DNA of 64,000 bases, from IMG/VR virus record IMGVR_UViG_3300042287_000907; one strand, written 5' to 3'. The translations under genes and the position numbers were made by a program. Within the stretch, counting starts at the first letter, position 1. The number at the start of each line of letters is the position of its first letter. A model generated the notes under the pieces. The model was given only the letters and a program-made list of their open reading frames with translations. It was not told the DNA's origin and did no database searches. This stretch comes from a virus. This document shows, one piece after another, positions 4,263 to 51,546 of the stretch.

Positions 4263-4643
4263 GAAATTGTTGTAATCCCTTCAAAGTGAAGGCATTCTGG
4301 ACGCGGGTTCGACTCCCGCCAGGTCCACCATAAGGAGATTAGTATGGATAACGAATATAGCACATTAGTTGGCTTTATTATTGTTACTGTAGTATTTGCT
4401 CTAGTCCTTTTATGATGGGCCTGCCATGGTTTCGACAGGGTGAGATAATAGAGACGGCAACACGGTAGGCGATGACCGTAAATCAAGCAAAACTCGTAAA
4501 TGCAAACGCAGATACATTCGACTTTAGCGCAATGAGCTTCACTGGTAACACCGTTCGCGGTGCTGCTAATGAAAGCAGATTTGCTCTAGCTGCCTAAAAA
4601 ACAGCAGGTCCGGGGTAGGAAATACCTTGTAAACAAAACAACC
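4263..4643 (+). ncRNA. ssrA: Circularly permuted (two-piece) tmRNA
   Basis: T-arm GCGGG-TTCGACT-CCCGC and CAGGTCC-ACCA end at 4330, upstream of the 5' strand GGGCCTG (4417-4423). The 7-bp acceptor stem has G3:U70. Tag ORF 4502-4597 ends FALAA*. Outer ends are approximate. Confidence 0.92.
4344..4415 (+). CDS. Putative 23-aa membrane peptide in the tmRNA intervening segment
   Basis: TAAGGAG SD then MDNEYSTLVGFIIVTVVFALVLL*. Confidence 0.55.
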   Translation: MDNEYSTLVGFIIVTVVFALVLL

Positions 4644-4672
4644 AAAAAAGACTACTTCGGTAGTCTTTTTTT
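4644..4672 (+). terminator. Intrinsic terminator after tmRNA
   Basis: AAAAAAGACTAC-TTCG-GTAGTCTTTTTTT. Confidence 0.9.
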
Positions 4673-4722
4673 ATGATTACCTAAAATTTTTAGCTATATA
4701 TTATAAGTTTAAAGGAAATATT

Positions 4723-28524: not shown

Positions 28525-28665
28525 ATTAACTAAGGAACTCAATGACAGACGACGATTTTAAAAGACACCTACATCGACAACTAGAAGCAGATAAAAAAAA
28601 TCACGGACAGTTGACTAATAGAATTTTTGCTAAACCTAAAACGAATGGTTCAAATAAATATAGTC

Positions 28666-30717
28666 ATGCAAAAACTAATCAAAAAAATCCTAACTAGTCC
28701 GTGGACTGCACTGCTGACATTAGCACTTATTATAAGTATAAGAATCGCTGATCCTGTCTTTGTAGAAAGTGTAAGACTACGCTACTTCGATACCTTAATC
28801 ACTGCCAAAGCACCGACAGCCAATAACATCTACGCAGTAAACATAGATGAAGCAGCCTTAGACAAATATGGTCAATGGCCTTTACCGAGGGCAGAGTATG
28901 CAAAAATTATTAAAGATCTCTATAATCGTGGTGCTGGCCTTGTTGTGCTCAATGTTATCATGGCTGAGCCTGACCGCACTGGTGGTGATGCTGTTTTCGC
29001 AACGGCTCTAAAACAATATCCAGTAGTGCTAGGATCAGTGCCTAGCCAACGAACAAAAAATACGCCACGCAATCCAGGTTCAGCAGTGCTAGGCCCAGAG
29101 TGGCAGGACCAAATCGTCCAATATCCGGGACTGATTGCTAACATACCCCAATTAGAAAATGCGGCAGCAGGCATTGGAATAGTTGGCACACTACCAGAAG
29201 TTGACGGCGTGAATCGTAGACTGCCGTTGATTGTGTCTGTAGACGGTAAACTGTATCCTAGTATCGCTATGGAAACACTTCGTGTTGCTGCTGGCGACTC
29301 TACGTTCCAGGTTAAGCTCAACGAAGGTGGCGTTGAGAAAATGCGCATACCTAAGTTTGGTCCTATTACTACAGACAACCTAGGTCGTGTATGGATCGAT
29401 TGGAGTCAAGAAAACCAACAGGTGAGTCTAATGAACTTACCTAAAACTTTTAATGGTGCTATAGTTATTGTAGGCCCAACAGCCGCTGGTATTAGTAATC
29501 CATTGCCTACGGCCAAAGGCGCAGTATTTCCACAAGATGCACAAGCTGCCGCAATTGGCACCATGATAAATGGTGTGGTAATACAGCGTCCCGACTATGC
29601 TGATGGTTTAGAAATCATTGCGATTCTAGCAGTGGGAATACTATTGTTATTTTTAACGAGGTGGGTATATGCGGGACTTGCGAGTGTTATCATTATATGT
29701 GTTGGTGTGGTCTTTGGTAGTCACTACGCTTTCTCTAATTTTCTATTCTTATTTGACGCTACTGCCATTCTTGTTGGCACAATCTTGGTCGCTCTGCATG
29801 CCTACGGTGTCAAGTTTGTAAGTGAGTTTCTACAGAAACAGGCCATAAAGAAACAGTTTGCCGGATATGCCAGTCCAACAGTTGTACGTATGCTTGCTGA
29901 GAATCCTGCACTCATCAAGGATGGAATGAAGCGTGAAGTTTCAATATGTTTTAGTGATCTACGTGGGTTTACACCATTAGGTGAAAGTTTCGGTGACGAC
30001 GTTAAAGGACTAACACGTATCATGAACGGGTATATGGATGCTATTACACAACCTGTGTTAGATGCTGATGGTATGATCATCAAGTATATCGGTGATGCCA
30101 GTATGCACATACACAATGCTCCTATTGAAGATCCTAACCATCCAAAAACAGCAGTTCGTACAGGACTTAACATGTTGAAGGCAGTAAAACAATTTAATGA
30201 TAAGATTGTTGCAGAAGGCCGTCCTGCTATTGCTATGGGTGCAGGTATCAACACGGGCCTAGGCTACATTGGAGAGATGGGATCTACTGCAAGGCACAGC
30301 TATGATATCCTAGGTGATGCTGTCAGTACTGCGGCACGTATTGAAAGCAAATGCAAAGAATATGGGTGTGTGCTATTAGTCGGTGGGGCCACAGTAGACC
30401 AGTGTGGTGATGATTTCTTCTTTCTAAAAATAGACGATCTAGCAGTCAAGGGCAAGACAGTAGGTATCGCTATCTATACAGTCTTAGACGACGTCACTCC
30501 TGACTACCATGTGTCTAAGAAAATACACAATGCCATGCATGGTGCATATAGATCACAGAATTTCAGTACCGCAATCAGCATGTGCAAACAGCTGAGAGAT
30601 CAGTTCGACGGCAGATTAAGTGGTTATTATGATATGTGGATCGAACGTTGCGAGTTCCAATCGACACAGAAATTGCCTGAAGATTGGGATGGAATTTTCC
30701 ACGCTTCGACAAAATAG
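28666..30717 (+). CDS. CHASE2-domain class III adenylate/guanylate cyclase
   Basis: IDE.AL..YGQWPLPR, DGV.RR (CHASE2); FSDLRGFT, KYIGDA, GINTG, YDILGDAV..AAR.E. Confidence 0.92.
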   Translation: MQKLIKKILTSPWTALLTLALIISIRIADPVFVESVRLRYFDTLITAKAPTANNIYAVNIDEAALDKYGQWPLPRAEYAKIIKDLYNRGAGLVVLNVIMAEPDRTGGDAVFATALKQYPVVLGSVPSQRTKNTPRNPGSAVLGPEWQDQIVQYPGLIANIPQLENAAAGIGIVGTLPEVDGVNRRLPLIVSVDGKLYPSIAMETLRVAAGDSTFQVKLNEGGVEKMRIPKFGPITTDNLGRVWIDWSQENQQVSLMNLPKTFNGAIVIVGPTAAGISNPLPTAKGAVFPQDAQAAAIGTMINGVVIQRPDYADGLEIIAILAVGILLLFLTRWVYAGLASVIIICVGVVFGSHYAFSNFLFLFDATAILVGTILVALHAYGVKFVSEFLQKQAIKKQFAGYASPTVVRMLAENPALIKDGMKREVSICFSDLRGFTPLGESFGDDVKGLTRIMNGYMDAITQPVLDADGMIIKYIGDASMHIHNAPIEDPNHPKTAVRTGLNMLKAVKQFNDKIVAEGRPAIAMGAGINTGLGYIGEMGSTARHSYDILGDAVSTAARIESKCKEYGCVLLVGGATVDQCGDDFFFLKIDDLAVKGKTVGIAIYTVLDDVTPDYHVSKKIHNAMHGAYRSQNFSTAISMCKQLRDQFDGRLSGYYDMWIERCEFQSTQKLPEDWDGIFHASTK

Positions 30718-37649: not shown

Positions 37650-38225
37650 ATGGAGCAAAAAGTGAAAAAATCGGAATATTTCAATGCTGAGGATCAGATT
37701 GATCTCAAACTGCTAGAATCTAGCACATTTTTCCTTAACGGTGAAATCAACGAAGAATCTGTAGGAGAATGTGTGCGGTGGTTTCTCTATGAGAATCTTG
37801 ATGTAGCCAAGGAAAAAACACTGACACTTTATATTAATTCCACAGGCGGTGATCTTTATCAGGCATTTGCACTCATAGATGTCATGCAGGCCAGTCCTCA
37901 TAAAGTACGATGTGTAGGCATCGGTGCAGTGATGAGTGCGGCATTCTTGATCTTTGCTTCAGGCACACACGGTGAACGATACGCTGCCAAAAACACCAGT
38001 TTCATGTGCCACCAATTTTCCGAAAGTATGGACAATAAATATCACGATCTCAAAGCCACTATGCGAGAAAATGACAGCTGTAATGAACGTATGGTCTCAG
38101 TTTTGAAAGCAGCCACTGGATTGGCACCCTCGGTGATCAAGAAACGCCTGCTGCCAGCATCAGACGTTTATCTAACCGCAGAAGAAACTGTGGAAATTGG
38201 CGTAGCAGATCATCTACTGGGATAA
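37650..38225 (+). CDS. clpP: ClpP-like protease subunit
   Basis: LYINS.GG, MSAA (Ser), FMCHQ (His), D.YLTAEE....G..D. Confidence 0.88.
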   Translation: MEQKVKKSEYFNAEDQIDLKLLESSTFFLNGEINEESVGECVRWFLYENLDVAKEKTLTLYINSTGGDLYQAFALIDVMQASPHKVRCVGIGAVMSAAFLIFASGTHGERYAAKNTSFMCHQFSESMDNKYHDLKATMRENDSCNERMVSVLKAATGLAPSVIKKRLLPASDVYLTAEETVEIGVADHLLG

Positions 38226-38506: not shown

Positions 38507-38535
38507 TTGACACATAAATAAAAAGACCGTATACT
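38507..38535 (+). promoter_or_regulatory. tRNA-array promoter P1
   Basis: TTGACA-17-TATACT with TAAATA in the spacer. Confidence 0.85.
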
Positions 38536-38590: not shown

Positions 38591-38619
38591 TTGACACAGA
38601 GACTAAATAAATGTATAAT
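38591..38619 (+). promoter_or_regulatory. tRNA-array promoter P2
   Basis: TTGACA-17-TATAAT with TAAATA in the spacer. Confidence 0.9.
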
Positions 38620-38888: not shown

Positions 38889-39068
38889 ATGGAACAGATA
38901 GATTACAAAAAATTAAATGAACGAGTCGTTGAACAGGCTTATGAAGCTGCTTTTAATCGAAATGAACTTTCGAAAGAACAACTTCAAAAACTTATTCAAG
39001 ATAAGTTTGAACGTGCTAGAACATATCACGAATCGTTGGCAAAATTGTCGACGTTTAATGTAAACTAA
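38889..39068 (+). CDS. Small helical hypothetical protein (59 aa)
   Basis: AAGGA SD; MEQIDYKKLNERVVEQAYEAAFNRNELSKEQLQKLIQDKFERARTYHESLAKLSTFNVN*. Confidence 0.7.
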   Translation: MEQIDYKKLNERVVEQAYEAAFNRNELSKEQLQKLIQDKFERARTYHESLAKLSTFNVN

Positions 39069-39084
39069 TAGCACAAAGTGTGAA

Positions 39085-39296
39085 TATCAGGAAACGAGGT
39101 CCTGGCTCCGCACTATAAACACGGAGCGAACGGGCGGCCTGTAGGATGAAACTCTTCTTCTAGAGCGAAAAATTACAGCGTATTAAAGAGCATAGACCTG
39201 ACCTGGACTGAGATGTCGCAGACTGTGTTCTTTAATACACACTCTCCTACTCCACTTTACAAGGAGGACAGATTGACATAGTCGATGGAGAGTGTT
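39085..39296 (+). ncRNA. Structured non-coding leader of the tRNA array
   Basis: Hairpins CAGG/CCTG, GCTCCG/CGGAGC, CTGTA/TACAG, GTATTAAAGAGCA/TGTTCTTTAATAC, ACACTCTCC/GGAGAGTGT. Confidence 0.55.
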
Positions 39297-39304
39297 ACAA
39301 ATTT

Positions 39305-39393
39305 GGAGCTTGATCCCTACGGCGGACTGTAAATCCGTTGCCTTAATATGTAGGGTGGCTGGCAGTTAGGTTCGATTCCTTCAGGCTCCACCA
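39305..39393 (+). tRNA. tRNA-Tyr(GTA), atypical (9-bp acceptor, 3-bp T stem, no D arm)
   Basis: Anticodon arm GCGGA-CTGTAAA-TCCGT; ends ACCA. Confidence 0.7.
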
Positions 39394-39399
39394 AGTTTT

Positions 39400-39475
39400 G
39401 CCTCGTTCATATAACGGTCTATTATATCCGCCTGTCTAGCGGAATACAGGGGTTCGACTCCCCTACGAGGCGCCA
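39400..39475 (+). tRNA. tRNA-Asp(GTC)
   Basis: Cloverleaf, loop CTGTCTA, ends GCCA. Confidence 0.9.
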
Positions 39476-39481
39476 GTTTAT

Positions 39482-39557
39482 TCCCCAGTAGCACAGCGGT
39501 AGTTGCACTTGACTGTTAATCAAGGTGTCCGTGGTTCGATCCCACGCTGGGGAGCCA
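39482..39557 (+). tRNA. tRNA-Asn(GTT)
   Basis: Cloverleaf, loop CTGTTAA. Confidence 0.95.
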
Positions 39558-39565
39558 AGTTTTAT

Positions 39566-39640
39566 GGACCGTTCGTCTATCGGTTAGGACACTAGGTTTT
39601 CATCCTGGTAAGAGGGGTTCGACTCCCCTACGGTCTTCCA
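39566..39640 (+). tRNA. tRNA-Glu(TTC)
   Basis: Cloverleaf, loop TTTTCAT. Confidence 0.9.
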
Positions 39641-39646
39641 TATAAT

Positions 39647-39720
39647 GCGGGATTAGTTTAATGGTCAAACGAAACCTTGCCAAGGTTTAGTCAGGAGTTC
39701 GATTCTCCTATCCCGCTCCA
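39647..39720 (+). tRNA. tRNA-Gly(GCC)
   Basis: Cloverleaf, loop TTGCCAA, ends TCCA. Confidence 0.93.
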
Positions 39721-39726
39721 AGTTAT

Positions 39727-39801
39727 ATGCCCTTAGTGTTAACGGCAGCACAACGGTCTCCAAAACCGCTAGTGGGGGTTCGAATCCCTCAGGGTATGCC
39801 A
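39727..39801 (+). tRNA. tRNA-Trp(CCA)
   Basis: Cloverleaf, loop CTCCAAA. Confidence 0.9.
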
Positions 39802-39877
39802 ATTAGTATTATAAGTAATATGCTCGGCCCGGTAATTGCTATATTATGCTATCGAGCAATAATTTAGAGGATATTGC

Positions 39878-40462
39878 ATGAACGACATCATTATACTAGA
39901 CAATTTCTTACCTAAGTCATATGAAGATGAAATTGAAAAACATTTTTCTTCATTGGAGTTTCCCTGGTATTATAATCCGGGTGTTTCTTATTCACAAGAA
40001 GAGAACGCTAAATTTATTGCTAACGATAGCAATATAAAAGAAACCGACGGCTTCGTACATAGATTGATCATAGAAAATGCAAAGGTAAGTGGGTATGGCG
40101 ATCTAGTTAGGCCTATAATGTATTTTGTAGAAGACAAATTTAAAGTAAAGGTTAATTATATCATCAGAGCAAGAGCCGTAATGATTTATAAAAATTCAGT
40201 GTTTGGAGAATTTTATAATGTTCCTCATGTTGACGATATGAACAGGCATATGACATTAATTTACTATGTCAACGACAGCGATGGAGACACTGTTATCTTC
40301 AAAGAGAAATATGTAAATGATATTAGTTACAGTAAAAAGACTGTGGAACGTAGAGTTGAACCTAGAAAAGGTAGAGCTGTTTTGTTTGACGGGCACCGTT
40401 ATCATACAGGATCTGTGCCAAAATACAATAACAGAATGTTAATTAATTTCAATTTCAATTAA
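39878..40462 (+). CDS. 2OG-Fe(II) oxygenase-like protein
   Basis: PHVD, YYVNDSDGDT, H.GS.P...R..INFN. Confidence 0.8.
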   Translation: MNDIIILDNFLPKSYEDEIEKHFSSLEFPWYYNPGVSYSQEENAKFIANDSNIKETDGFVHRLIIENAKVSGYGDLVRPIMYFVEDKFKVKVNYIIRARAVMIYKNSVFGEFYNVPHVDDMNRHMTLIYYVNDSDGDTVIFKEKYVNDISYSKKTVERRVEPRKGRAVLFDGHRYHTGSVPKYNNRMLINFNFN

Positions 40463-40463
40463 T

Positions 40464-40541
40464 AGTGCGGTGGCAGAGAGGCCCAATGCAAGAGTCTGCA
40501 AAACTCTAAAGCCGTGGGTTCAAATCCCACCCGCACTTCCA
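40464..40541 (+). tRNA. tRNA-Cys(GCA) copy 1
   Basis: Loop CTGCAAA, U73. Confidence 0.9.
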
Positions 40542-40546
40542 ACAAT

Positions 40547-40638
40547 GCCAGCGAGACTTGGTAGTCAGAGAGGTTTTATAAACCTTTTAGCGCCAGATTA
40601 GCGTTCTTGAGAGGGTTCGATTCCCTCCGCTGGTACCA
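40547..40638 (+). tRNA. tRNA with TAT anticodon (nominally Ile) and long variable arm
   Basis: GCCAGCG/CGCTGGT acceptor, loop TTTATAA, T arm GAGGG-TTCGATT-CCCTC. Confidence 0.75.
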
Positions 40639-40642
40639 TTAT

Positions 40643-40720
40643 GTGTCGGTGGCAGAGAGGCCCATTGCAACGGATTGCAAATCCGTAAAACCGTCAGTTC
40701 AAATCTGACCCGACACTCCA
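40643..40720 (+). tRNA. tRNA-Cys(GCA) copy 2
   Basis: Loop TTGCAAA, U73. Confidence 0.9.
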
Positions 40721-40731
40721 GTAGAGTAAAT

Positions 40732-41325
40732 ATGTCTATGCTACCTGTTTATGAAAAATATGCGTTATTGTCTAATAATGAAAAATTATTTTTATTCAAT
40801 TTCGTATCTGGATTAAAATCAAATTCAATAATTTTAGAAGTAGGAACTTTTCTCGGTGGAAGTGCTGCTATAATGGCATCTTCTAATCCACAAGTAATCG
40901 TTCATACTATAGATGATTATAATGACAGACACGACAGGCATAAGCAATCAGTAAGTCTTATGTTGCTAGAGTCTCTAGGTGAGAACCCTAGAACTAAAGA
41001 AAATGTAGAATTGTTATTAAAAGATTACAAAAATATATTTTTCCATAAAGGTAAAAGCCCTGATAATTTTAAAAATTGGGGAACACCGATTGATGTCTAT
41101 TTCGAAGATGGTCTTCATAGAAATCCTACGTTAGAAAATAATGTAAATTACTGGACAAAATTCTTATCAAAAAATGGTTACGTGATATTTCATGATCATC
41201 GACCGTTTCTTGAAACAGATCATCCTAGTAGATTTGAAGACGTAATTGATATCGTTCAAAGATTATCTAGTAATTTTGAGATAATCTCACAAGAAGAATC
41301 TTTGATTATTTTACAACAAAAATAA
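40732..41325 (+). CDS. Class I SAM methyltransferase (Methyltransf_24-like)
   Basis: ILEVGTFLGGS, IDVYFEDG.H, G.VIFHD. Confidence 0.8.
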   Translation: MSMLPVYEKYALLSNNEKLFLFNFVSGLKSNSIILEVGTFLGGSAAIMASSNPQVIVHTIDDYNDRHDRHKQSVSLMLLESLGENPRTKENVELLLKDYKNIFFHKGKSPDNFKNWGTPIDVYFEDGLHRNPTLENNVNYWTKFLSKNGYVIFHDHRPFLETDHPSRFEDVIDIVQRLSSNFEIISQEESLIILQQK

Positions 41326-41332
41326 AATTTAT

Positions 41333-41410
41333 GCCCCTCTAGCCCAATTGGTATGAGGCGTTTCTCTCAAAAGGAAAATCGTCCCGGTTCGAGTCCGGGG
41401 AGGAGTACCA
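41333..41410 (+). tRNA. tRNA-Leu(CAA) with short variable loop
   Basis: Loop CTCAAAA; about 5-nt variable region. Confidence 0.8.
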
Positions 41411-41415
41411 AGTTT

Positions 41416-41506
41416 GGATGTAATAGTTGGTACGAGTGGGCATAAATTGCTTGCCCATGACATGTTTCGAGCATGAAGGTTGGTTCGATTCCAACAGCAT
41501 CCATCA
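41416..41506 (+). pseudogene. tRNA-like element / degenerate tRNA
   Basis: GGATG/CATCC acceptor, intact T arm, variable arm, 9-nt anticodon-position loop, ends ATCA. Confidence 0.55.
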
Positions 41507-41512
41507 AGTTAT

Positions 41513-41602
41513 GGAAGTGTGGCTGAGTCTGGCTTAAGGCAGCAGTCTTGAAAACTGAAGTTCCGCAAGGGGCCGTGGGTTCGAATCCTACCACTTCCGC
41601 CA
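41513..41602 (+). tRNA. tRNA-Ser(TGA)
   Basis: Loop CTTGAAA, long variable arm, ends GCCA. Confidence 0.93.
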
Positions 41603-41608
41603 ATGTAT

Positions 41609-41682
41609 TCCCGGATAGTTAAATGGTATAACAGTCGGCTGATAACCGGCCATTACAAGTTCGATTCTTGTTCTGGGAACCA
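41609..41682 (+). tRNA. tRNA-Ile(GAT)
   Basis: Loop CTGATAA. Confidence 0.9.
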
Positions 41683-41733
41683 ATTTTTAAAAAGGAGATC
41701 TGTCATGACAAGTGACAAGAGTGATAAGATGTC

Positions 41734-41808
41734 GGGGGTATAACTTAACGGCTAAAGTAGTAGGCTTTTAACCTATTAATCAGAGTTCGATTCTCTGTGC
41801 CCCTACCA
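41734..41808 (+). tRNA. tRNA-Lys(TTT)
   Basis: Loop CTTTTAA. Confidence 0.92.
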
Positions 41809-41875
41809 TATAAAAACACATTTTTCTGAACGCCAGTCAGTTGCCGTGCAGAGTAAGATTAGTGTGTTTCTATAT

Positions 41876-41950
41876 GGTAATGTAGCATAATGGTAGTGCA
41901 GCACCTTCATACGGTGTACAGTGAAAGTTCGACTCTTTCCATTACCACCA
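41876..41950 (+). tRNA. tRNA-Met(CAT), elongator or Ile2 type
   Basis: Loop TTCATAC, paired G1:C72. Confidence 0.85.
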
Positions 41951-41955
41951 ATTAT

Positions 41956-42031
41956 CTCTCTAAAGTGTTATCTGGTTGCATCCGCGGTTTGGGGCCGTGT
42001 GGTCTAGGTTCGAATCCTAGTAGGGAGACCA
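41956..42031 (+). tRNA. tRNA-Pro(TGG)
   Basis: Loop TTTGGGG, C1:G72. Confidence 0.9.
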
Positions 42032-42034
42032 AGT

Positions 42035-42247
42035 TTTGTAAGTGTCAGCAAGTGAAGTCACGCTGTTCAGTATTCTTCGAAGGTACTGTGCAGTAGAAGG
42101 CAAGCGGGTTCGATGCCTGGCCTATCTGTAATGGATAGGCGATAGATGGAATCCACGCTGGATGAATCCCAAGTGACGTACCGACTCCCGTCCGGACTTG
42201 TATAATCGGGTGAATGGTGCTGATAACGTGGTAGCACTACTTACAAA
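42035..42247 (+). ncRNA. Unknown structured RNA of about 210 nt between tRNA-Pro and tRNA-Gln
   Basis: Closed by TTTGTAAGT/ACTTACAAA; multiple internal helices. Confidence 0.6.
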
Positions 42248-42257
42248 TTCAATCTGT

Positions 42258-42331
42258 TGGGGGTTAGTGTAGCGGTAACACTACAGACTTTGACTCTGTC
42301 ATCACTGGTTCGATCCCAGTACCCTCTGCCA
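42258..42331 (+). tRNA. tRNA-Gln(TTG)
   Basis: Loop CTTTGAC, weak 1:72 pair, ends GCCA. Confidence 0.92.
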
Positions 42332-42335
42332 CAGA

Positions 42336-42420
42336 GTTCCGATCATCGCGGTAAGTGTAGCCGGCCGCCTATAAGGTCATCGATGATCGTGCCGTCGCGG
42401 GTAAGCGGCATCTCGGGAAC
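42336..42420 (+). ncRNA. Unknown GC-rich structured RNA of about 85 nt
   Basis: GTTCC/GGAAC closing stem, GATCATCG/CGATGATC, TGCCG/CGGCA. Confidence 0.55.
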
Positions 42421-42422
42421 AT

Positions 42423-42497
42423 CGGTCCGTAGCTCAGTGGAAGAGTTCTGGTCTTCGAAACCAGCTGTCGGGAGTTCGAATCTCTCCGGACCGGCCA
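42423..42497 (+). tRNA. tRNA-Arg(TCG)
   Basis: Loop CTTCGAA. Confidence 0.9.
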
Positions 42498-42510
42498 TTA
42501 CAAGGAGATT

Positions 42511-42717
42511 ATGATGAAACCTATGACTTTTAAAAATCGTATGAATAATGAACGTTTTGTCTGTGATGACGTCCGTGCTGTGGAAGTTATAGACGGAGAA
42601 GAATATCTCATAGTTCATCGACCCAATGAACATCGTGTTTTTAAGATGCGAAAAGATGCTTTGGAAAAAGATACCACTGTAGTGAAAGGGATATCACGAA
42701 ACTTTGCGAAAGTTTAA
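42511..42717 (+). CDS. Hypothetical protein whose 3' end overlaps tRNA-Arg(GCG)
   Basis: AAGGAG SD; 68 aa. Confidence 0.65.
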   Translation: MMKPMTFKNRMNNERFVCDDVRAVEVIDGEEYLIVHRPNEHRVFKMRKDALEKDTTVVKGISRNFAKV

Positions 42718-42747
42718 GTTCACGTTCGACTCGTGGCAGTGGTACCA
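42673..42747 (+). tRNA. tRNA-Arg(GCG)
   Basis: ACCACTG/CAGTGGT acceptor, AAACT-TTGCGAA-AGTTT, ends ACCA. Confidence 0.85.
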
Positions 42748-42753
42748 AACAAT

Positions 42754-42828
42754 GGAGTCTGTGATGTAATGGTAGCATCCGAGATTGTGATTCTCGTCGC
42801 GTGGGTTCGATTCCCATCATTCTCCCCA
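42754..42828 (+). tRNA. tRNA-His(GTG)
   Basis: G-1:C73, loop TTGTGAT; two acceptor-stem mismatches. Confidence 0.85.
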
Positions 42829-42833
42829 AAAAT

Positions 42834-42909
42834 GCTGCTTTAGCTGATGTGGTCATAGCGGCGGTCTGAAGAACCGTTGAACCAGGTTCGATTCCTGGAG
42901 GCAGCACCA
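42834..42909 (+). tRNA. tRNA-Phe(GAA)
   Basis: Loop CTGAAGA. Confidence 0.92.
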
Positions 42910-42997
42910 TATAACACTCTAGTGAAAGAACGAGCGTAGCTCTTAGGGCCTAGCCTGCGGCATTGCGGATTGCGGTGGCTAGTGTGTTTTTATATAT

Positions 42998-43081
42998 GCG
43001 AGTGTGGAGAAATGGTATACTCAGGAGACTTAAAATCTCCCGTCTTAGGGCATGAGGGTTCGAGTCCCTCCACTCGCACCA
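42998..43081 (+). tRNA. tRNA-Leu(TAA)
   Basis: Loop CTTAAAA, variable arm. Confidence 0.93.
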
Positions 43082-43106
43082 GAAATTTAGCATTGCTGTG
43101 TTAATA

Positions 43107-43742
43107 TTAATCAAAAATTCTAGCAGCTTCTTCAAAGCTACTAATTTGATTTATTGGAAATCTTAGACTAAGGCTTAATCTCGAATAATATCCTCGATTA
43201 TAATACACATTGTGAGGAATGTCTGTCCGAACCAATAAAGGGTGTGTAGCAGTTAGTTCACATTGATCAATACAGATTACATCTTCGGTGCAGTAGTTTT
43301 TATATGTAATACCACTACCATACAAGTAATCGAACATTGAAGATTTATATGGATTCGGTTGTAAAATCGGAAAGACTTCACAATTTTTTTTGAACGTCCA
43401 CCACTTGAATGCAGATTCTGAATCTGTTAATTCAAAATTAATTGCAAACGGAGTTTTTATCCATTTATTATTTTCTAAAAAAACATCAGTATGTATATGA
43501 GGATCTTCTTTGTGTTTGCTTGGATCACCTACGTGTCCAAAAATTATCATAACATTAGGAAATACGTTTTTTGATCTAAAAAAATGTTTCGCTTCGTTTG
43601 ACAGAAAATATCCTGTTTTTAAAGATGTATACAAATATTGTCTTGAGTTTGGATGTTTGTTAGATTTAGATTGAATGAGCTCGTCGAGAACATTTTCCAT
43701 TAATGGATTGAATGAAATAGATAGTTGTTTAAAACACTGCAT
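43107..43742 (-). CDS. Hypothetical protein, 2OG-Fe(II)/cupin-like
   Basis: HIHTD, FAINF, PHNV, R.SLSLRF. Confidence 0.6.
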   Translation of the reverse strand: MQCFKQLSISFNPLMENVLDELIQSKSNKHPNSRQYLYTSLKTGYFLSNEAKHFFRSKNVFPNVMIIFGHVGDPSKHKEDPHIHTDVFLENNKWIKTPFAINFELTDSESAFKWWTFKKNCEVFPILQPNPYKSSMFDYLYGSGITYKNYCTEDVICIDQCELTATHPLLVRTDIPHNVYYNRGYYSRLSLSLRFPINQISSFEEAARIFD

Positions 43743-43764
43743 CTGATATTTATTTCTAAAACTC

Positions 43765-43793
43765 TTGACAAGAGACTAAAATTGTCGTATAAT
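43765..43793 (+). promoter_or_regulatory. Internal sigma70-type promoter in the tRNA array
   Basis: TTGACA-17-TATAAT. Confidence 0.9.
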
Positions 43794-43807
43794 AGTTGTT
43801 GTAGTTA

Positions 43808-43891
43808 GCCCCGGTGGTGGAATGGTAGACACGTCGGTCTTAGAAGCCGATGTCGCAAGGCGTGAGAGTTCGAGTCTCTCCTGGGGCACCA
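43808..43891 (+). tRNA. tRNA-Leu(TAG)
   Basis: Loop CTTAGAA, variable arm. Confidence 0.93.
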
Positions 43892-44055
43892 TTAAGAAAT
43901 AGCATTAGCGGGTATCGTCTATGGACGCATAGACTTATGAAGAATAGGGCCATCTTACTCTTCTGAAATAACCGTGGACAATGGCTGATGAGGAGAATCG
44001 AACTCCACTCAGAAATCCGTCTCATCCCATAGGGTGTAATGTTATTTTTTAATGG
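43889..44055 (+). ncRNA. Unknown structured RNA of about 165 nt
   Basis: 19-bp closing stem CCATTAAGAAATAGCATTA/TAATGTTATTTTTTAATGG; internal hairpins. Confidence 0.6.
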
Positions 44056-44059
44056 TTAT

Positions 44060-44133
44060 GCCTCGTTAATTTAATGGTAGAATGCCCTCCTTACAAGTGG
44101 GATACGGCAGTTCGATTCTGTCACGAGGTACCA
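44060..44133 (+). tRNA. tRNA-Val(TAC)
   Basis: Loop CTTACAA. Confidence 0.9.
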
Positions 44134-44140
44134 GTAATAC

Positions 44141-44226
44141 GGAAGACTCCCATAATGGTATTGGAGCGGCTTGCTAAGCCGTCGATCGGCAACGGTTTCG
44201 GGGTTCGAGTCCCCGGTCTTCCGCCA
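44141..44226 (+). tRNA. tRNA-Ser(GCT)
   Basis: Loop TTGCTAA, variable arm. Confidence 0.9.
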
Positions 44227-44245
44227 AATTTTAAAAAGGAAATAT

Positions 44246-44425
44246 ATGAAACCTACTAAGAACTACAAGATGTCAAAGCCACTCAAGGCCAGCCTTGCAC
44301 TGTCAACATTCCAAGATCCACATCAAAAGGGGCAGTGGAAACGTGCTATGATTGACGCTGAACTATGTGCGGCCATCCAACCTAAACGTGAAAAAGGTCG
44401 CAAGCCCGACGCAGTCAAGCAATAA
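44246..44425 (+). CDS. Small basic hypothetical protein (59 aa)
   Basis: AAGGA SD; MKPTKNYKMSK... Confidence 0.65.
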   Translation: MKPTKNYKMSKPLKASLALSTFQDPHQKGQWKRAMIDAELCAAIQPKREKGRKPDAVKQ

Positions 44426-44431
44426 AATTCT

Positions 44432-44505
44432 GGGGGATTAGTTAAATGGGATAACATCGGCTTTGCAAGCCGAGATTGAGAGTTCGATTCTCTCATCCTC
44501 CACCA
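44432..44505 (+). tRNA. tRNA-Ala(TGC)
   Basis: G3:U70, loop TTTGCAA. Confidence 0.93.
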
Positions 44506-44522
44506 GAGATATATAGTATTAG

Positions 44523-44596
44523 GCCCTTTTAGTATAATGGTATTACACCTGTTTTGTAATCAGGTTACGGCAGTTCGATTCTGTCAAGGGGCACCA
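44523..44596 (+). tRNA. tRNA-Thr(TGT)
   Basis: Loop TTTGTAA. Confidence 0.9.
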
Positions 44597-44612
44597 ATTT
44601 TACCAAAAAGTA

Positions 44613-44641
44613 TTGACAAACACAGTAAAGAATGTTATACT
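44613..44641 (+). promoter_or_regulatory. Sigma70-type promoter
   Basis: TTGACA-17-TATACT. Confidence 0.85.
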
Positions 44642-44933
44642 TGTTTTGTTGCGTTAGAAATAACGTGACCGGCGAGATGAAGGGTAGATGAGAAAAGACA
44701 CAAGGCGTGAGCTTCATGCTTACTCCGAACTTACAATCCAACTGAACATTGGAACGTGTTTGTGTGATCCGATCCCTAATAGAATGTCATTTGTTAATCG
44801 GAAATATATGGACCTCTGTGTATTGTTAATTGCACATTGTCAAAGGAAGATTACAAACCTTCCGTTGTCCTTTGTCCGGTCTTTTACTTGACCTTTCGTC
44901 AAACCGTTATATTTTTAAAAAGAGAGAAAATCA

Positions 44934-45509
44934 ATGAACATCACACTGCGCAAGGCCAATGCTGTACAACACAGCATCACAGAAGCAATCAAGAACATCA
45001 AAATTGATCTCACTGTAGAGATCAATGAGTTCCAAACAGTCGAGGACGTTATCACTAAAGCTAACTCCACCTTGGTAGAAAATGACGGCCGCCGTCAGAA
45101 GCTGACCATGGCTCTGTACAATATCCGTGCTCTAGTAGGCACAGCCAATACCGCCAGTGGTATCGACACTGCATTGGCCAAAGCAGCCTTTATCGACAAG
45201 CGTATTGGTCAGCTAGAGGAATTGGCCAAGGCCACAGAAATCACTGCTCTAGATGTAATCAAAGGCAAGCTGGACAAAATCCGCAACGACAAGAGCGAAT
45301 CTACTCGCAGTCGCATCTACGGCTACAGCGACACAGTTACCACAGGTGTGCTAGGACTAGAACAGATCGCACAGGCCAAAGCAGAAGTGTTGAGTCTTAA
45401 AAAGCAGAAACAGAAGATCAACGACGAAGTGTTAGAACTCAACATCAAGACAGAGATTCCTCTTTCAGAAGATGTAGTTGCTGTATTGCAGGCCGAAGCA
45501 TTAATTTAA
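44934..45509 (+). CDS. Hypothetical coiled-coil protein
   Basis: Heptad-rich 191-aa ORF behind a long structured leader. Confidence 0.75.
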   Translation: MNITLRKANAVQHSITEAIKNIKIDLTVEINEFQTVEDVITKANSTLVENDGRRQKLTMALYNIRALVGTANTASGIDTALAKAAFIDKRIGQLEELAKATEITALDVIKGKLDKIRNDKSESTRSRIYGYSDTVTTGVLGLEQIAQAKAEVLSLKKQKQKINDEVLELNIKTEIPLSEDVVAVLQAEALI

Positions 45510-45515
45510 AACTAT

Positions 45516-45589
45516 CGCGGGATAGAGAAACGGTAACTCACGAGTCTCATAAGCTCGAGATCCTGGTTCGATTCCGGGTCCCGCAACCA
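45516..45589 (+). tRNA. Initiator tRNA-fMet(CAT)
   Basis: C1:A72 mismatch, CGCGGG start, loop CTCATAA. Confidence 0.88.
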
Positions 45590-45603
45590 ACCATAAGGTA
45601 CGT

Positions 45604-45831
45604 ATGAAAAATAAATCACTGAGTCGTGGTCCCGAAATTGACACAGAAAAATGTGTGGAAAATATAGGCGGTAATAGATTTGACTTGGTGCTGATTGCAT
45701 CAGCTCGTGCCAGAGAGCTCAGTCGCAGACACAAGGCAGCTGAACTACAGACGCAGATGAACGCACCTGTGGCAGCACTGTTAGATGTGCAGTCAGGTGC
45801 GGTGGGTCGAGAATACCTGAAAAAAGTCTAG
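45604..45831 (+). CDS. rpoZ: RNA polymerase omega subunit-like protein
   Basis: CVE.IGGNRFDLVLIASARAREL...V.AL..V..G. Confidence 0.85.
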   Translation: MKNKSLSRGPEIDTEKCVENIGGNRFDLVLIASARARELSRRHKAAELQTQMNAPVAALLDVQSGAVGREYLKKV

Positions 45832-45860
45832 TCTTAAGATTATAGATTAAATAAATCTAT

Positions 45861-45934
45861 GCGGGGTTCGTATAGTGGTAATACCTGAGCCTTCCAAGCT
45901 CATGCGGAGAGTTCGATTCTCTTACCCCGCTCCA
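45861..45934 (+). tRNA. tRNA-Gly(TCC)
   Basis: Loop CTTCCAA, ends TCCA. Confidence 0.93.
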
Positions 45935-45948
45935 AATAAAATAACAAG

Positions 45949-46485
45949 ATGAAAATAATCGTTACCGGACATACGAGAGGTCTAGGAAAAGGCATTTATG
46001 ATTATTTTTCTAAAGACAATGAAGTTGTTGGATTTTCAAAAAGTAATGGGTTTGATATCACTGACCCTGATTGTAGAACAGAAATAGTAAATGCATCTGA
46101 AGATGCAGATATTTTTGTGAATAACGCACATGTTAATGGAGATTCTGCACAACTGCATTTACTTAAAGATATGCACGAACTTTGGAAACATCAAAATAAA
46201 ATTATAATTAATGTAAGTAGTTTTAGATCCACTTTTGTAGATGGCAATTTTGAATTTTCAGAGTCTTTTCGAGTTAAGAAAGAGTTGGATCTTTTTTGTA
46301 CAAAAAATCAACACGTATTAAAATATCCTTATCTAATAAATCTTAGACCCGGCCTTATTGATACAGACAGAACACGCAATGAACAGGGTAAAAAAATGAA
46401 TGTCCAAGACGTAATTGTGGTATTAGATTTTATTTTGAAAAACAAAGATATTTTTAAGATACTAGATATAGGCTTTAAAGGCTGA
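45949..46485 (+). CDS. Short-chain dehydrogenase-like protein
   Basis: VTGHTRGLG, FVNNA, IINVSS, PGLIDT. Confidence 0.8.
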   Translation: MKIIVTGHTRGLGKGIYDYFSKDNEVVGFSKSNGFDITDPDCRTEIVNASEDADIFVNNAHVNGDSAQLHLLKDMHELWKHQNKIIINVSSFRSTFVDGNFEFSESFRVKKELDLFCTKNQHVLKYPYLINLRPGLIDTDRTRNEQGKKMNVQDVIVVLDFILKNKDIFKILDIGFKG

Positions 46486-46515
46486 AAAAATTATTAAATT
46501 CTCAGAAGACACATA

Positions 46516-47091
46516 ATGTACAAAACGATAGACAAAAATGAAATTTTTCAAAAATTTGATTTCTCATCGTTGATCACCAAGCAAGATGATCTCGAAGCCT
46601 GTGAAATTATCAAGACGATCATAGCTGACGGTAACTATTTTACTAATTCGCCTAAGTATCAAACCAAAGAAAACATCTTTGCTAGATCAGAAGCTGTATG
46701 GTTAAAATACCGTGTGAGTTTCATGATGAGTGCGTTCATGTATCTAGGCCGTGAAGCCAAAATATCTAACATGATGGCCTGGAGTTTTATGACCAATCTC
46801 GAGGGTGCCGAAAACCGTGATAATCTCTGGCATCATCATTGGCATCCTACTACCCCCACCGCACAAATACTCAGTGGTATTTGGTATCTACACATACCCG
46901 AGGATGTTAAAGATCGAGACTATTGCGGTACAGAGATGGCACCGGGGGGTCCTCAATCTGATGACAGATATTTTGTGCGTCCCGCAGATGGTAATTGGTT
47001 GATCTATCCCGGCAACATGTGGCATCGCCCCGGAATCGTACAGAGCGATCAATACAGATTTGTCTTAGCCGCAGACATTCAAATAGACTAA
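46516..47091 (+). CDS. Hypothetical protein, 2OG-Fe(II)/cupin-like
   Basis: WHHH, SGIWYL, YP...WHRP, RFV.AAD. Confidence 0.6.
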   Translation: MYKTIDKNEIFQKFDFSSLITKQDDLEACEIIKTIIADGNYFTNSPKYQTKENIFARSEAVWLKYRVSFMMSAFMYLGREAKISNMMAWSFMTNLEGAENRDNLWHHHWHPTTPTAQILSGIWYLHIPEDVKDRDYCGTEMAPGGPQSDDRYFVRPADGNWLIYPGNMWHRPGIVQSDQYRFVLAADIQID

Positions 47092-47092
47092 A

Positions 47093-47167
47093 CTGGCCAT
47101 AGTATAATGGATAATACAGCGAGCTTCTACCTCGCGAATGTGGGTTCGATTCCTGCTGGCCGGACCA
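47093..47167 (+). tRNA. tRNA-Arg(TCT)
   Basis: Loop CTTCTAC. Confidence 0.9.
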
Positions 47168-47171
47168 CGCC

Positions 47172-47245
47172 GCTCTCATAGTATAAAAGCATTACACTAC
47201 ATTGGTAATGTAGAAACGGTGGAGCATTACCACCTGAGAGCACCA
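47172..47245 (+). tRNA. tRNA-Thr(GGT) with non-canonical T loop
   Basis: Loop TTGGTAA; T arm GGTGG-AGCATTA-CCACC. Confidence 0.8.
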
Positions 47246-47246
47246 C

Positions 47247-47275
47247 TTGACAAAAATTGATAAATGTAGTATAAT
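47247..47275 (+). promoter_or_regulatory. Sigma70-type promoter
   Basis: TTGACA-17-TATAAT. Confidence 0.9.
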
Positions 47276-47303
47276 ACTAGTATACAAATTATCAAAGGCA
47301 TAT

Positions 47304-47726
47304 ATGCAGATCATCATGGAAGGTAGGGCTAGTCCTACCAAATCAATCATAGAAACCTCCGCGAATTTCTTTGCCAAAGAACTGGGATTGAGCCGTAGCC
47401 GGTTCACTCTGTTGATCATGACTGAACGAGGAATGGCCCGTAAAGAAGGCATGCGAGGTGCGGTGCATAAAGTAGGTCCAAAATTTCTTACCATGATCAT
47501 AGACTCTGGGCTAGAGTTTGAAAGACTGATAATCACCCTGGCACACGAAATGATACATGTCAAACAATATGCTCGCGGTCAGATCAAATCCAGCCGCAGT
47601 TGCAAAACACACTATTGGATGGGCCGGCACATACGTAAAAGCTATTACGATCAACCTTGGGAAATCGAAGCCTATACCAAAGAACGTGTGCTAGCCAATA
47701 AAATTTTTGCGATAACAGGAGCATGA
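47304..47726 (+). CDS. Zinc metallopeptidase-like protein
   Basis: LAHEMIHVKQ (HExxH), PWEIEAY. Confidence 0.8.
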   Translation: MQIIMEGRASPTKSIIETSANFFAKELGLSRSRFTLLIMTERGMARKEGMRGAVHKVGPKFLTMIIDSGLEFERLIITLAHEMIHVKQYARGQIKSSRSCKTHYWMGRHIRKSYYDQPWEIEAYTKERVLANKIFAITGA

Positions 47727-49497: not shown

Positions 49498-51546
49498 ATG
49501 CCCTTACAGATTCGCAGAGGCACAAACGCACAAAGACAAGCCATGACACAGGCCCTAGCTCAGGGCGAACTGTTGTATGTTACTGATGAACAAAAATTAT
49601 ATGTTGGTAATGGCAGCACACTAGGTGGCATACAAATTACCGGTTATACTGATGAAAATGCACAGGATGCTGCTGCAGGATTGTTTGCCAACGGCACACA
49701 CAGTGGTATAACTTTCGCATATAATGACGCAGGCGCTAGTATATCTGCCGAATTAGATCTAACTACCAACACAGGTACAATAGGCGGAGTATTTAAAGGC
49801 GACGTAGTAGCAGAAGATTCTACTCTACTCATAGATGCTACTTTGGGCAGAATTGTTGGACCTGTATTTTCTAATGTCACAGGCAATGTCACAGGCAATG
49901 TCACAGGCAATGTCACAGGCAATGTCACAGGTAATGCAGACACTGCTACAACAGCTACCACAGCCACCACAGTAGCACTTACTGCTACTAATTTTACCGC
50001 AACTGGACACTTTATCACATTCGTTGATACCGCTACTGGCAATGAAACCTTAAGAACAGATACCGCCCTAACATATAACCCAAGCACTGATACATTAACT
50101 GCCGGCATTTTTTCGGGCACTTTATCCGGTAATACTGTCGGATATCATACAGGTGACGTTAAAGGTTCTGTATTTGCAGATGATTCAACTATGTTGGTAG
50201 ATGCAACCGGCGGACGATTCTTTGGAGATCTAACAGGTAATGTCAGTGGTAACATTGAGACTAACTTAATTTCTTCTGCAACATCTACTACCATTGTTGT
50301 AGATACCCCCGTTAATTTTCAGACTGCGGTAACTGTTGAGGGTGATTCGAATTTTTACAGTGAAGGTACCTTCATAACCAATGAAACAAATCTTCGGACT
50401 ATAGCATTAGATCAATTCCATGATGACTCTGTATCGGCTTCTTTTCTTAATCTAAGAAGAGCTCGAGGAAATGATTTATCCCCATTAAACGTGTTAGATG
50501 GTGACACAATAGGTGCAGTTATATCTAGTGCCAAGGTTACTGACGGATATGACACAGTTGCTGGTATTTTTACAAAAATTCAAGGAACACCAACATCATC
50601 TATAGCGCCAGCTGGTTTTGAATTCTGGACTAGATCATCTACCACAAACACGTTCGGACCGCGATTAAGAATAAGAAATGATGGGCAATTATTTCAAAAT
50701 ATCGATGACTTCTCTACAGCTCCTGCTTATAGATTGGTGCAAATTCATAACAACCAGGAAAGCAGAGATTTTAGATTAACCAAGGCTAGGGAATCTGGAG
50801 GATTACCAATCGCTGTTCAACCCGACGACGTGCTTGCTAAATTTAATTTTGCAGGTTACGACGGTGCTGACTATTCAAATTCTGCTCAAATAAGATCAGT
50901 TGTAGAAACCGGATCTACGGTAACTACTGGCAGAGTGCCGGGAAGACTTGATTTTTATGTTGCGAATAGTGTCGGTACCTTGATAGAAAAAATGTCGATA
51001 GGCGCTGTTTCTACATTAATCAATGGACAATTGATCGTAGCTTCGGCAACTGCGAACTCATTACCATTGTATCTTCAAAATAATACCAGTTCGGTTACTG
51101 ATGGTGCTAGATTAGGAATGCGTAGATCTAGGGGAACATATACTGCACCGACTGCTGTTCAAAACGGTGATGTGTTGTATAGACTAGGATGGGGCGGCTA
51201 CGACGGATCGGTCTACAGAGACAGTGCCTTTATAACAGGTACCGTAACCGGAGCTGTGAGTTCAGGGGTAATACCGACTAAGTTGAGTATCTTAACTGAA
51301 AACTCTTCAGGAACTAAAACCCTTGCATTAGAAATCACAGACAGTCAGGTTGTAAAAATTGATACCATAGCATCCTTGACCGGACAGTCTACTAATTTCA
51401 GTAATGCTGTTCGTTTAGTTGTATATGCTGATAATACAGCCAGAGATGCTGCAATAACTTCACCTACTGCTGGTATGATGGTGTTTAATACCACCGGAAC
51501 AAAATTCCAAGGATATACAGGCGCAGCCTGGGTTGATCTAAATTAA
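49498..51546 (+). CDS. Virion fibre/structural protein
   Basis: LQIRRGT..GEL.Y.TD..KLYVG.G N-terminal motif, GNVT repeats, repeated R.RG....P..V..GD modules. Confidence 0.75.
   Translation: MPLQIRRGTNAQRQAMTQALAQGELLYVTDEQKLYVGNGSTLGGIQITGYTDENAQDAAAGLFANGTHSGITFAYNDAGASISAELDLTTNTGTIGGVFKGDVVAEDSTLLIDATLGRIVGPVFSNVTGNVTGNVTGNVTGNVTGNADTATTATTATTVALTATNFTATGHFITFVDTATGNETLRTDTALTYNPSTDTLTAGIFSGTLSGNTVGYHTGDVKGSVFADDSTMLVDATGGRFFGDLTGNVSGNIETNLISSATSTTIVVDTPVNFQTAVTVEGDSNFYSEGTFITNETNLRTIALDQFHDDSVSASFLNLRRARGNDLSPLNVLDGDTIGAVISSAKVTDGYDTVAGIFTKIQGTPTSSIAPAGFEFWTRSSTTNTFGPRLRIRNDGQLFQNIDDFSTAPAYRLVQIHNNQESRDFRLTKARESGGLPIAVQPDDVLAKFNFAGYDGADYSNSAQIRSVVETGSTVTTGRVPGRLDFYVANSVGTLIEKMSIGAVSTLINGQLIVASATANSLPLYLQNNTSSVTDGARLGMRRSRGTYTAPTAVQNGDVLYRLGWGGYDGSVYRDSAFITGTVTGAVSSGVIPTKLSILTENSSGTKTLALEITDSQVVKIDTIASLTGQSTNFSNAVRLVVYADNTARDAAITSPTAGMMVFNTTGTKFQGYTGAAWVDLN
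49873..49932 (+). repeat. 12-nt tandem repeat x5 (NVTG)
   Basis: AATGTCACAGGC x4 then AATGTCACAGGT. Confidence 0.92.

Follow-up and report, generated by a model that had tools for sequence, protein, structure and literature searches.

A phage-encoded tyrosine tRNA gene with a putative strand-swapped, pseudoknotted core

The tRNA array and its first gene

The window, that is, the whole 64,000-nucleotide stretch of viral DNA analysed here (IMG/VR record IMGVR_UViG_3300042287_000907), carries an array of tRNA genes. The array opens with an 89-nt gene bearing the anticodon GTA, to which we refer as the rewired gene (Table 1), and a tRNA-Asp gene starts at 39400, 6 nt past its end. Just 9 nt separate the 8-bp acceptor stem from the anticodon stem, a distance shared by all members of the family, so that a D hairpin, already reported as absent in the initial annotation, is impossible. 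Instead, CCCTAC (strand A) is perfectly complementary to GTAGGG (strand B), as had been noticed before, and strand B lies in a variable-arm loop closed by (T)GCC at 39339-42 and GGC(A) at 39361-64. Topologically, strand A has the role of the 3' strand of a canonical D stem. The connector ahead of strand B is 4-12 nt long and A/U- or A-rich in all members. The GTA anticodon arm, A73 and CCA are intact, again as first described. In addition to the pairing listed in Table 1, GGAGCTTGA (39305-13) is able to pair with TCAGGCTCC (39381-89).

Table 1. Parts of the rewired tRNA-Tyr(GUA) gene and their positions in the window
Feature	Position	Strand	Remarks
Rewired tRNA-Tyr(GUA), whole gene	39305..39393	+	89 nt including encoded CCA; from the sequence
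Acceptor stem, 5' strand GGAGCTTG, 8 bp	39305..39312	+	98.6-100% paired with 39382-39389; 7-8 of 8 pairs compensatory
Linker AT, 2 nt (TT in most relatives)	39313..39314	+	In the place of U8-A9; alignments A1, A2
Strand A, CCCTAC	39315..39320	+	D-arm position; leads straight into the anticodon stem; pairs with 39350-39355
Anticodon arm GCGGA/TCCGT, loop CTGTAAA	39321..39339	+	5-bp stem plus a sixth pair, G39321.T39339
Anticodon GTA	39329-31	+	Within loop CTGTAAA
Variable-arm stem, 5' strand GCC, optionally with T39339	39340..39342	+	Pairs with 39361-39363(64)
A/U-rich connector TTAATAT	39343..39349	+	Inside the variable-arm loop
Strand B, GTAGGG	39350..39355	+	In the variable-arm loop; pairs with strand A, crossing the V stem to give a pseudoknot
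Elbow motif TGG	39356..39358	+	Directly 3' of strand B; proposed G18-G19 counterpart contacting the T loop
Spacer CT	Between TGG and variable-stem 3' strand	+	From the sequence
Variable-arm stem, 3' strand GGCA	39361..39364	+	Pairs with (T)GCC 39339-42
Spacer GT	Between variable-stem 3' strand and T arm	+	From the sequence
T arm: T39367.T39381 (U.U), AGG/CCT, loop TTCGATT	39367..39381	+	From the sequence
Acceptor stem, 3' strand CAGGCTCC	39382..39389	+	Pairs with 39305..39312
Discriminator A73 and CCA	39390; 39391-93	+	CCA encoded

Standard gene finders pass over this gene. ARAGORN called 28 tRNAs for 19 amino acids in the window together with a permuted tmRNA; neither the rewired gene nor any other Tyr tRNA was among these calls, and the rewired gene was left uncalled by ARAGORN at 66 loci. 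Rfam added one tRNA, which reads Thr-GGT. By ARAGORN and Rfam together, no second tRNA with a GTA anticodon was found in the window, in agreement with the early remark that the array holds no other Tyr tRNA. A search of 39000-47500 with RF00005 at E<=1 gave no match to the rewired gene; the other tRNAs of the window scored 46-68 bits by Rfam. The Rfam tRNA-Sec model (RF01852) matched the rewired gene at 28.6 bits, below the gathering score of 47. With this sub-threshold score, a GUA rather than a UCA anticodon and a 12-bp rather than a 13-bp branch, the gene does not qualify as a tRNA-Sec. The covariance model R1 gave the window gene a score of 102.4 bits.

Several other elements of the window were recorded along the way. 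At 40547-40638 (+) lies a 92-nt class II tRNA with the anticodon UAU, whose D arm is tiny (GACT-TGGT-AGTC) and whose variable arm is long; it scores 35.7 bits on the Rfam tRNA-Sec model and resembles the allo-tRNA(UAU) group of Mukai 2017. A tRNA-like element at 41416-41502 (+) combines a good T arm (GTTGG TTCGATT CCAAC) with an acceptor stem of 6 bp, lacks a clean anticodon arm, ends in TCA instead of CCA and scores 23 bits on tRNA-Sec. The tmRNA gene (4238-4688, +) is of the permuted, two-piece type and encodes a tag ending in ALAA, here on a phage contig. The 682-aa ORF at 49498-51546 (+) begins with an Mtd_N (major tropism determinant) N-terminal domain and is possibly the target of a diversity-generating retroelement. 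Unusual phage cargo is found at 16837-18741, 22487-23791, 28627-30717, 37650-38225, 39878-40462 and 46516-47091: a full-length DnaK/Hsp70, a CsgG-like protein with SH3 domains, a CHASE2-adenylate/guanylate cyclase, ClpP, and 2OG-Fe(II) oxygenases interleaved with tRNA genes. A blastn search with a 2-kb region and a protein search with RNR-beta found no close relative of the window phage among isolated phages; the nearest RNR-beta matches, at 53-61% identity, belong to phages of Xanthomonas and Stenotrophomonas and are not diagnostic.

Immediately upstream of the rewired gene is the motif GTGTTACAAAT (39273-39304), which is kept in many relatives. It includes TTGACA-17-TACAAA with a TG (39273-39301), which we did not assign as a promoter: it ends 4 nt before the 5' end of the tRNA. 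Two near-perfect sigma-70-like promoters lie about 700 nt upstream, at 38507-38535 and 38591-38619. The window phage is common in lake-water metagenomes, and metatranscriptome contigs from three studies cover 39309-39426, some of them with a relative's acceptor variant. They leave the ORF that separates the tRNA blocks (39805-40339) essentially without cover, which is not evidence of absence. These RNA-library contigs, which reveal nothing of ends, strand or processing and may come from DNA carry-over or from relatives, offer a weak hint at expression.

Relatives in phages and bacteria

An exact 23-mer search of IMG/VR returned 39 loci, and a second pattern, in which the anticodon arm and the T loop were fixed and the D and variable regions left free, added further loci. 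Alignment A1 contains 46 distinct phage sequences. Alignment A2 (52 sequences) consists of the A1 set and 7 bacterial genome sequences from a pattern scan, and the addition of the Planctomycetota covariance-model matches and of Lyrsu brings the total to about 60 distinct relatives. Most homologues were found with a fixed anticodon loop and T loop, and the conservation of these parts is partly ascertainment; the bias is partly relieved by the covariance-model search and by a pattern with a free anticodon. Overall, the relatives lie on lake and other phage contigs, in the Pseudomonas syringae phages Lyrsu01-03 and in accessory tRNA arrays of Planctomycetota. In the cultured phages Lyrsu01-03, a perfect 8/4 member (8-bp acceptor stem and 4-bp T stem; strands CCUGUC/GACAGG and V stem CGUG/CACG in Lyrsu03) stands unannotated just before the single annotated tRNA-Pro, the only tRNA that the Lyrsu annotation lists (PMC11256456). 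The three phages have the accessions PP179323, PP179324 and PP179314, and in PP179314 the rewired gene occupies 463-550.

A strict pattern scan over one genome per bacterial species gave 7 matches, 5 of them in Planctomycetota, including the complete chromosome CP030884.1, and covariance model R1 gave 6 strong matches over 151 sampled Planctomycetota genomes. The Planctomycetota members have entirely different yet complementary helix sequences, with strand A/B helices such as CCCCUC/GAGGGG, CCCGCG/CGCGGG and CCCCCC/GGGGGG, and they keep UGG. In bacteria the rewired gene belongs to accessory tRNA arrays, where its neighbours are tRNA-Leu genes of just 75-79 nt, unusually short; in genome G001 it stands alone among housekeeping genes. 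A canonical tRNA-Tyr is also present in 4 of these Planctomycetota genomes, in the usual Thr-Tyr-Gly-Thr cluster, and an RF00005 search found one alongside the rewired gene in G001. Because a canonical tRNA-Tyr coexists with it, the rewired gene is dispensable in Planctomycetota.

Two further observations concern these arrays. In another Planctomycetota genome (G006), an 18-tRNA array contains a gene of the rewired 8/4 pseudoknotted design (L161:1501-1584) with the anticodon UAU, the T loop UGCAAAU, the strand helix CCGCC/GGCGG and the V stem CUCC/GGAG; therefore the design is not strictly Tyr-only. The short tRNA-Leu genes have a class I-like variable region and occur both in the window (Leu-CAA, 41333-41410, +) and at L137, L138 and L156-L160, several of them adjoining the rewired Tyr gene in Planctomycetota arrays. 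Of the three class II tRNA types, these arrays seem to have remodelled two, Leu and Tyr.

Covariation of the five helices

All five helices covary, including the strand A/B helix and the V stem, which cross each other. For the whole structure with the pseudoknot, 95.5% of cells were paired, compared with 84.6% in shuffles, and none of 500 shuffles reached 95.5%; double changes were seen at 17-19 pairs across the structure. The strand A/B helix was 98.8% paired overall. Its 6 core pairs were 100% paired across 46 distinct homologues, 4 of the 6 with compensatory changes, and the two strands occurred in 27 distinct sequence combinations, all complementary. Variants in phages include CCCAAC/GTTGGG, CCCTTCA/TGAAGGG, CCTGAC/GTCAGG, CTCTAC/GTAGAG, CCCTGC/GCAGGG, CCTCTC/GAGAGG, CCACAC/GTGTGG and CCACCCA/TGGGTGG. 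Controls in which the partner was slid along the sequence gave 35-58% pairing, which places the complementarity of strands A and B far above chance. The initial annotation had proposed a search of homologues for covariation of CCCTAC and GTAGGG and had named random decay there as the outcome that would speak against it; the covariation is found, and decay is contradicted by every helix.

The remaining helices behave in the same way. In A1, the 8-bp acceptor stem was 98.6% paired with 7 of 8 pairs compensatory, and the V stem, in which 97.3% of cells were paired, had compensatory changes at 3 of its 4 pairs, with versions such as TGCC/GGCA, TACC/GGTA, TGAC/GTCG, GGCA/TGCC, CGTG/CACG and TGTC/GACG. 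A scrambling control for the V stem discriminated weakly, the best chance helix measuring 3.3 bp against the 4-6 bp observed, so that the support for this stem comes from positional covariation. The anticodon stem was 100% paired (A1), its sixth pair being G.U in 40 sequences and A-U in 6, and compensation in this stem also appeared in L209, L211 and Planctomycetota members. RNAalifold, unprompted, returned the 8-bp acceptor stem and a 6-bp strand A/B helix continuous with the 6-bp anticodon stem. The minimum-free-energy fold of the single sequence was an unrelated long hairpin (z = -2.0); it was rejected, being blind to pseudoknots and contradicted by the alignment.

The division of the acceptor/T branch needs a correction. 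The gene had been described as having a 9-bp acceptor stem and a 3-bp T stem, as in allo-tRNAs. Such a 9/3 arrangement can be drawn in the subgroup of the window, the ninth pair A39313-T39381 being A-U in 3 of 46 distinct sequences, including that of the window; as a feature of the family it does not hold, and the family is 8/4. The fourth T-stem position is U.U in most members, and divergent members have a clean 4-bp T stem (GAGG/CCTC, GTGG/CCAC, AAGG/CCTT). What a tRNA is expected to have is present: a 12-bp acceptor/T branch (8+4), a CUGUAAA loop with U33, a UUCGAUU T loop and A73-CCA. One Planctomycetota member has C33 instead of U33. Judging from the alignments, the pseudoknotted secondary structure is almost certainly real and conserved.

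Tyrosine identity and the empty tyrosine slot

G1-C72 was found in 49/50 sequences and A73 in 52/52 (A2), and CCA is encoded in 44/46 phage sequences of A1. When the anticodon was left free in the pattern, every family member recovered still read GUA, with compensatory changes in the anticodon stem. That scan returned no phage member with another anticodon, and 4 matches were chance hits to non-tRNA sequence. The identity elements of bacterial tRNA-Tyr, namely A73, G1-C72 and G34-U35-A36, are all present. A free long variable hairpin for the C-terminal domain of TyrRS is missing: the V stem measures 3-4 bp, and strand A pairs with its loop.

We counted the amino acids served in the 31 arrays with >=16 ARAGORN tRNAs. 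ARAGORN called Tyr in 2 of these arrays, and each of the other 19 amino acids in 23-31. The two Tyr calls do not stand as canonical Tyr genes. They are odd class II tRNAs with GUA, U73 and a Ser/Leu-like D arm (L020:4399-4486, -; L028:10753-10841, +), and both coexist with a rewired Tyr gene. In eight arrays, including that of the window, 19 amino acids were covered and Tyr alone was missing. There was exactly one strong R1 match per array, and in dozens of phage tRNA clusters the rewired gene is the sole tyrosine tRNA. By gene content, the rewired gene fills the Tyr slot that would otherwise stand empty in near-complete phage tRNA sets.

The elbow motif

Where the T loop is UUCRAUU, strand B is directly followed by UGG (56 of 56 members); where it is AGCGUUA, the triplet is AAG (3 of 3 members). 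In ordinary cloverleaf tRNAs whose T loop is AGCRUUA, the D loop has AAAG at the usual place of G18G19. This pattern, which reflects few independent events, fits the idea that the triplet after strand B is the D-loop counterpart that would dock on the T loop. Such a cloverleaf tRNA is present in the window: the tRNA-Thr(GGT) at 47172-47242 (+), which ARAGORN missed and Rfam scored at 51 bits, has the non-canonical T loop AGCATTA and, in its D loop, AAAAG instead of GG. The alternative AGCRUUA/AAAG elbow pair recurs in other tRNAs of these phages (L041, L131).

Proposed fold and function

The reading that we favour, with a probability of roughly 0.7, is that the gene encodes an elongator tRNA-Tyr that is functional and whose core is strand-swapped and pseudoknotted. 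The earlier suggestion of a functional, rewired tRNA-Tyr gains support from the covariation, from the conservation of G1-C72, A73 and GUA, and from the filled Tyr slot, all of these being properties of the sequences. In the proposed molecule, the usual 12 bp of the acceptor/T branch would be split 8/4, with 9/3 also drawable for the window sequence. After the 2-nt linker, one uninterrupted strand would pass from the 6-bp helix straight into the anticodon stem of 5-6 bp. The loop of the variable arm, which is short (3-4 bp), would supply the other strand of this helix, making the helices cross and form a pseudoknot. Strand A would take the place of the 3' strand of the canonical D stem (22-25), strand B that of the 5' strand (10-13), and UGG that of G18-G19, locking onto the T loop at the elbow. 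The new connections would run from 8, at the acceptor end, to 21-22, from 44-45 to 10 through the A/U-rich connector, and from 19-21 to the 3' strand of the variable stem near 46-48. In a normal tRNA core the two sites of each connection already lie side by side, so that the molecule could plausibly take up an L shape, an argument based on textbook tRNA geometry.

We infer the three-dimensional fold, charging, decoding and nuclease escape from these features. With G1-C72, A73 and GUA, the RNA would be charged by a bacterial TyrRS and would decode UAY on behalf of the phage, supplying Tyr in a phage tRNA set that serves all 20 amino acids. Bacterial TyrRS recognises the long variable arm of tRNA-Tyr. 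Charging is therefore not guaranteed, since the variable arm is short and tied up in the pseudoknot. The same remodelling suggests an advantage. The stem of the tRNA-Tyr variable arm is where Septu and retron-Eco7 PtuAB cut, and the tRNA-Tyr of T5 escapes cleavage via its distinctive variable loop (PMC13096335; PMC11555353). A shortened variable arm locked in the core is a plausible form of escape from variable-arm nucleases, a possibility raised in the initial annotation as nuclease resistance, and the likely benefit would be that the PtuAB cut site is remodelled and buried. That escape from Septu/PtuAB-type nucleases drove the rewiring is plausible, and we hold it tentatively. The tRNA cargo of Lyrsu, the rewired gene and tRNA-Pro alone, fits an anti-defence role. 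A joint reading, in which a fully translation-active strand-swapped tRNA evolved as a counter-defence, cannot be cut by PtuAB-type nucleases and spread between phages and bacterial accessory arrays, is possible but doubtful as a whole.

An unlikely alternative, raised as a mimic or decoy in the initial annotation, is a tRNA-like decoy or sponge: a folded, stable RNA, unused in translation, that binds or titrates a host defence nuclease directed at tRNA-Tyr or another tRNA-binding factor, or, once charged, feeds a non-ribosomal reaction dependent on aminoacyl-tRNA. The non-canonical core may impair use by TyrRS, EF-Tu or the ribosome, and some allo-tRNAs are charged yet unused in translation (PMC5389517). 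The tRNA content of Lyrsu, a 47-kb podovirus with just the rewired gene and tRNA-Pro (PMC11256456), is in keeping with this, single-tRNA cargo of this sort being known for anti-defence tRNAs (PMC11555353), and so is the canonical tRNA-Tyr kept alongside in Planctomycetota. On the other hand, a decoy for a variable-arm nuclease should keep the variable arm, yet this is the part that has changed. The parts needed for charging and decoding are kept, namely the 12-bp branch, G1-C72, A73, CCA, the 7-nt loop with U33, and GUA, and otherwise complete arrays with no other Tyr tRNA are hard to explain if the RNA does not decode.

The unusual core could also be seen as a functional D-armless tRNA-Tyr with a large structured variable arm, the complementarity of strands A and B serving some other end, such as the folding or processing of the precursor, rather than the native fold. 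In the mitochondria of nematodes and mites, D-armless tRNAs are functional (PMC7609411). Nevertheless, a helix that lies inside the mature RNA and is 100% paired, with 4 compensatory pairs and 27 versions in phages and at least 2 bacterial phyla, makes this account very improbable, and the switch between UGG and AAG that tracks the type of T loop fits a structural role in the mature fold. The idea of a decaying pseudogene, or of a tRNA-like stretch arisen by chance, is hardly credible, even though both an ARAGORN call and a match to the Rfam tRNA model are absent: there is one copy per array at >60 loci, every helix has compensatory changes, and the anticodon loop, A73 and CCA are intact.

Comparison with known systems

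Outside animal mitochondria, the cloverleaf is considered near-universal among tRNAs. A literature search on unusual tRNA architectures found descriptions of 8/4, 9/3 and D-armless mitochondrial tRNAs and did not find a strand-swapped pseudoknot design. If the joint reading of a fully active tRNA that arose as a counter-defence holds, the L shape of tRNA can be reached through another secondary-structure topology. A conserved tRNA of bacteria and phages with a pseudoknot in place of the D hairpin would widen the known design space of tRNAs. It would also explain the systematic Tyr gap in many phage tRNA sets, standard finders missing the rewired gene, and would provide a natural, possibly orthogonal scaffold for tRNA engineering. 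It also offers a link to the newly described nucleases that cut the variable arm of tRNA-Tyr, and a cultured phage-host pair carries the rewired gene.

Canonical bacterial class II tRNA-Tyr has in common with the rewired gene GUA, A73, G1-C72, an extra arm, the T loop and a length of about 85 nt; it differs in that its branch is divided 7/5, its D hairpin has 3-4 bp and a loop with G18G19, and its variable hairpin is free and contacted by TyrRS. The T5 tRNA-Tyr is likewise phage-encoded, with an altered variable arm linked to PtuAB escape (PMC11555353, PMC13096335), but it is a normal cloverleaf with a different variable loop, and escape is experimental for T5, whereas for the rewired gene it is predicted. 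Allo-tRNAs and the (8/4) tRNA-Ser and tRNA-His of bacteria and alpha-proteobacterial phages share the 12-bp branch divided 8/4, with 9/3 possible in the window (PMC5389517). Like these tRNAs, the rewired gene has six base pairs both in the helix at the D position and in the anticodon stem, carries an extra arm, weakly resembles the tRNA-Sec model and occurs in phage tRNA clusters, and the 6+6-bp stack and 8/4 branch resemble the dimensions of tRNA-Sec and allo-tRNAs (PMC5389517, PMC7609411). By contrast, allo-tRNAs have a D hairpin with a long stem and a tetraloop, a closed long V arm, Ser-type identity and diverse anticodons (PMC5389517), while the rewired gene has no D hairpin, a V-loop pseudoknot, Tyr identity and, in phages, always GUA.

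The D-armless mitochondrial tRNAs, such as Ascaris tRNA-Ser(UCU), also lack a D hairpin and have a short connector between acceptor and anticodon stems (PMC7609411). They are truncated, floppy and dependent on adapted mitochondrial factors, whereas the rewired gene, found in bacteria and phages, is of full length, with a canonical T loop, a GG elbow motif and a new helix for the D stem. In the tRNA-like structures of plant viruses of the TYMV type, a pseudoknot forms the acceptor stem at the 3' end of an mRNA. Both are tRNA-like by way of a pseudoknot, but the rewired tRNA is a stand-alone gene in which the pseudoknot would replace the D arm.
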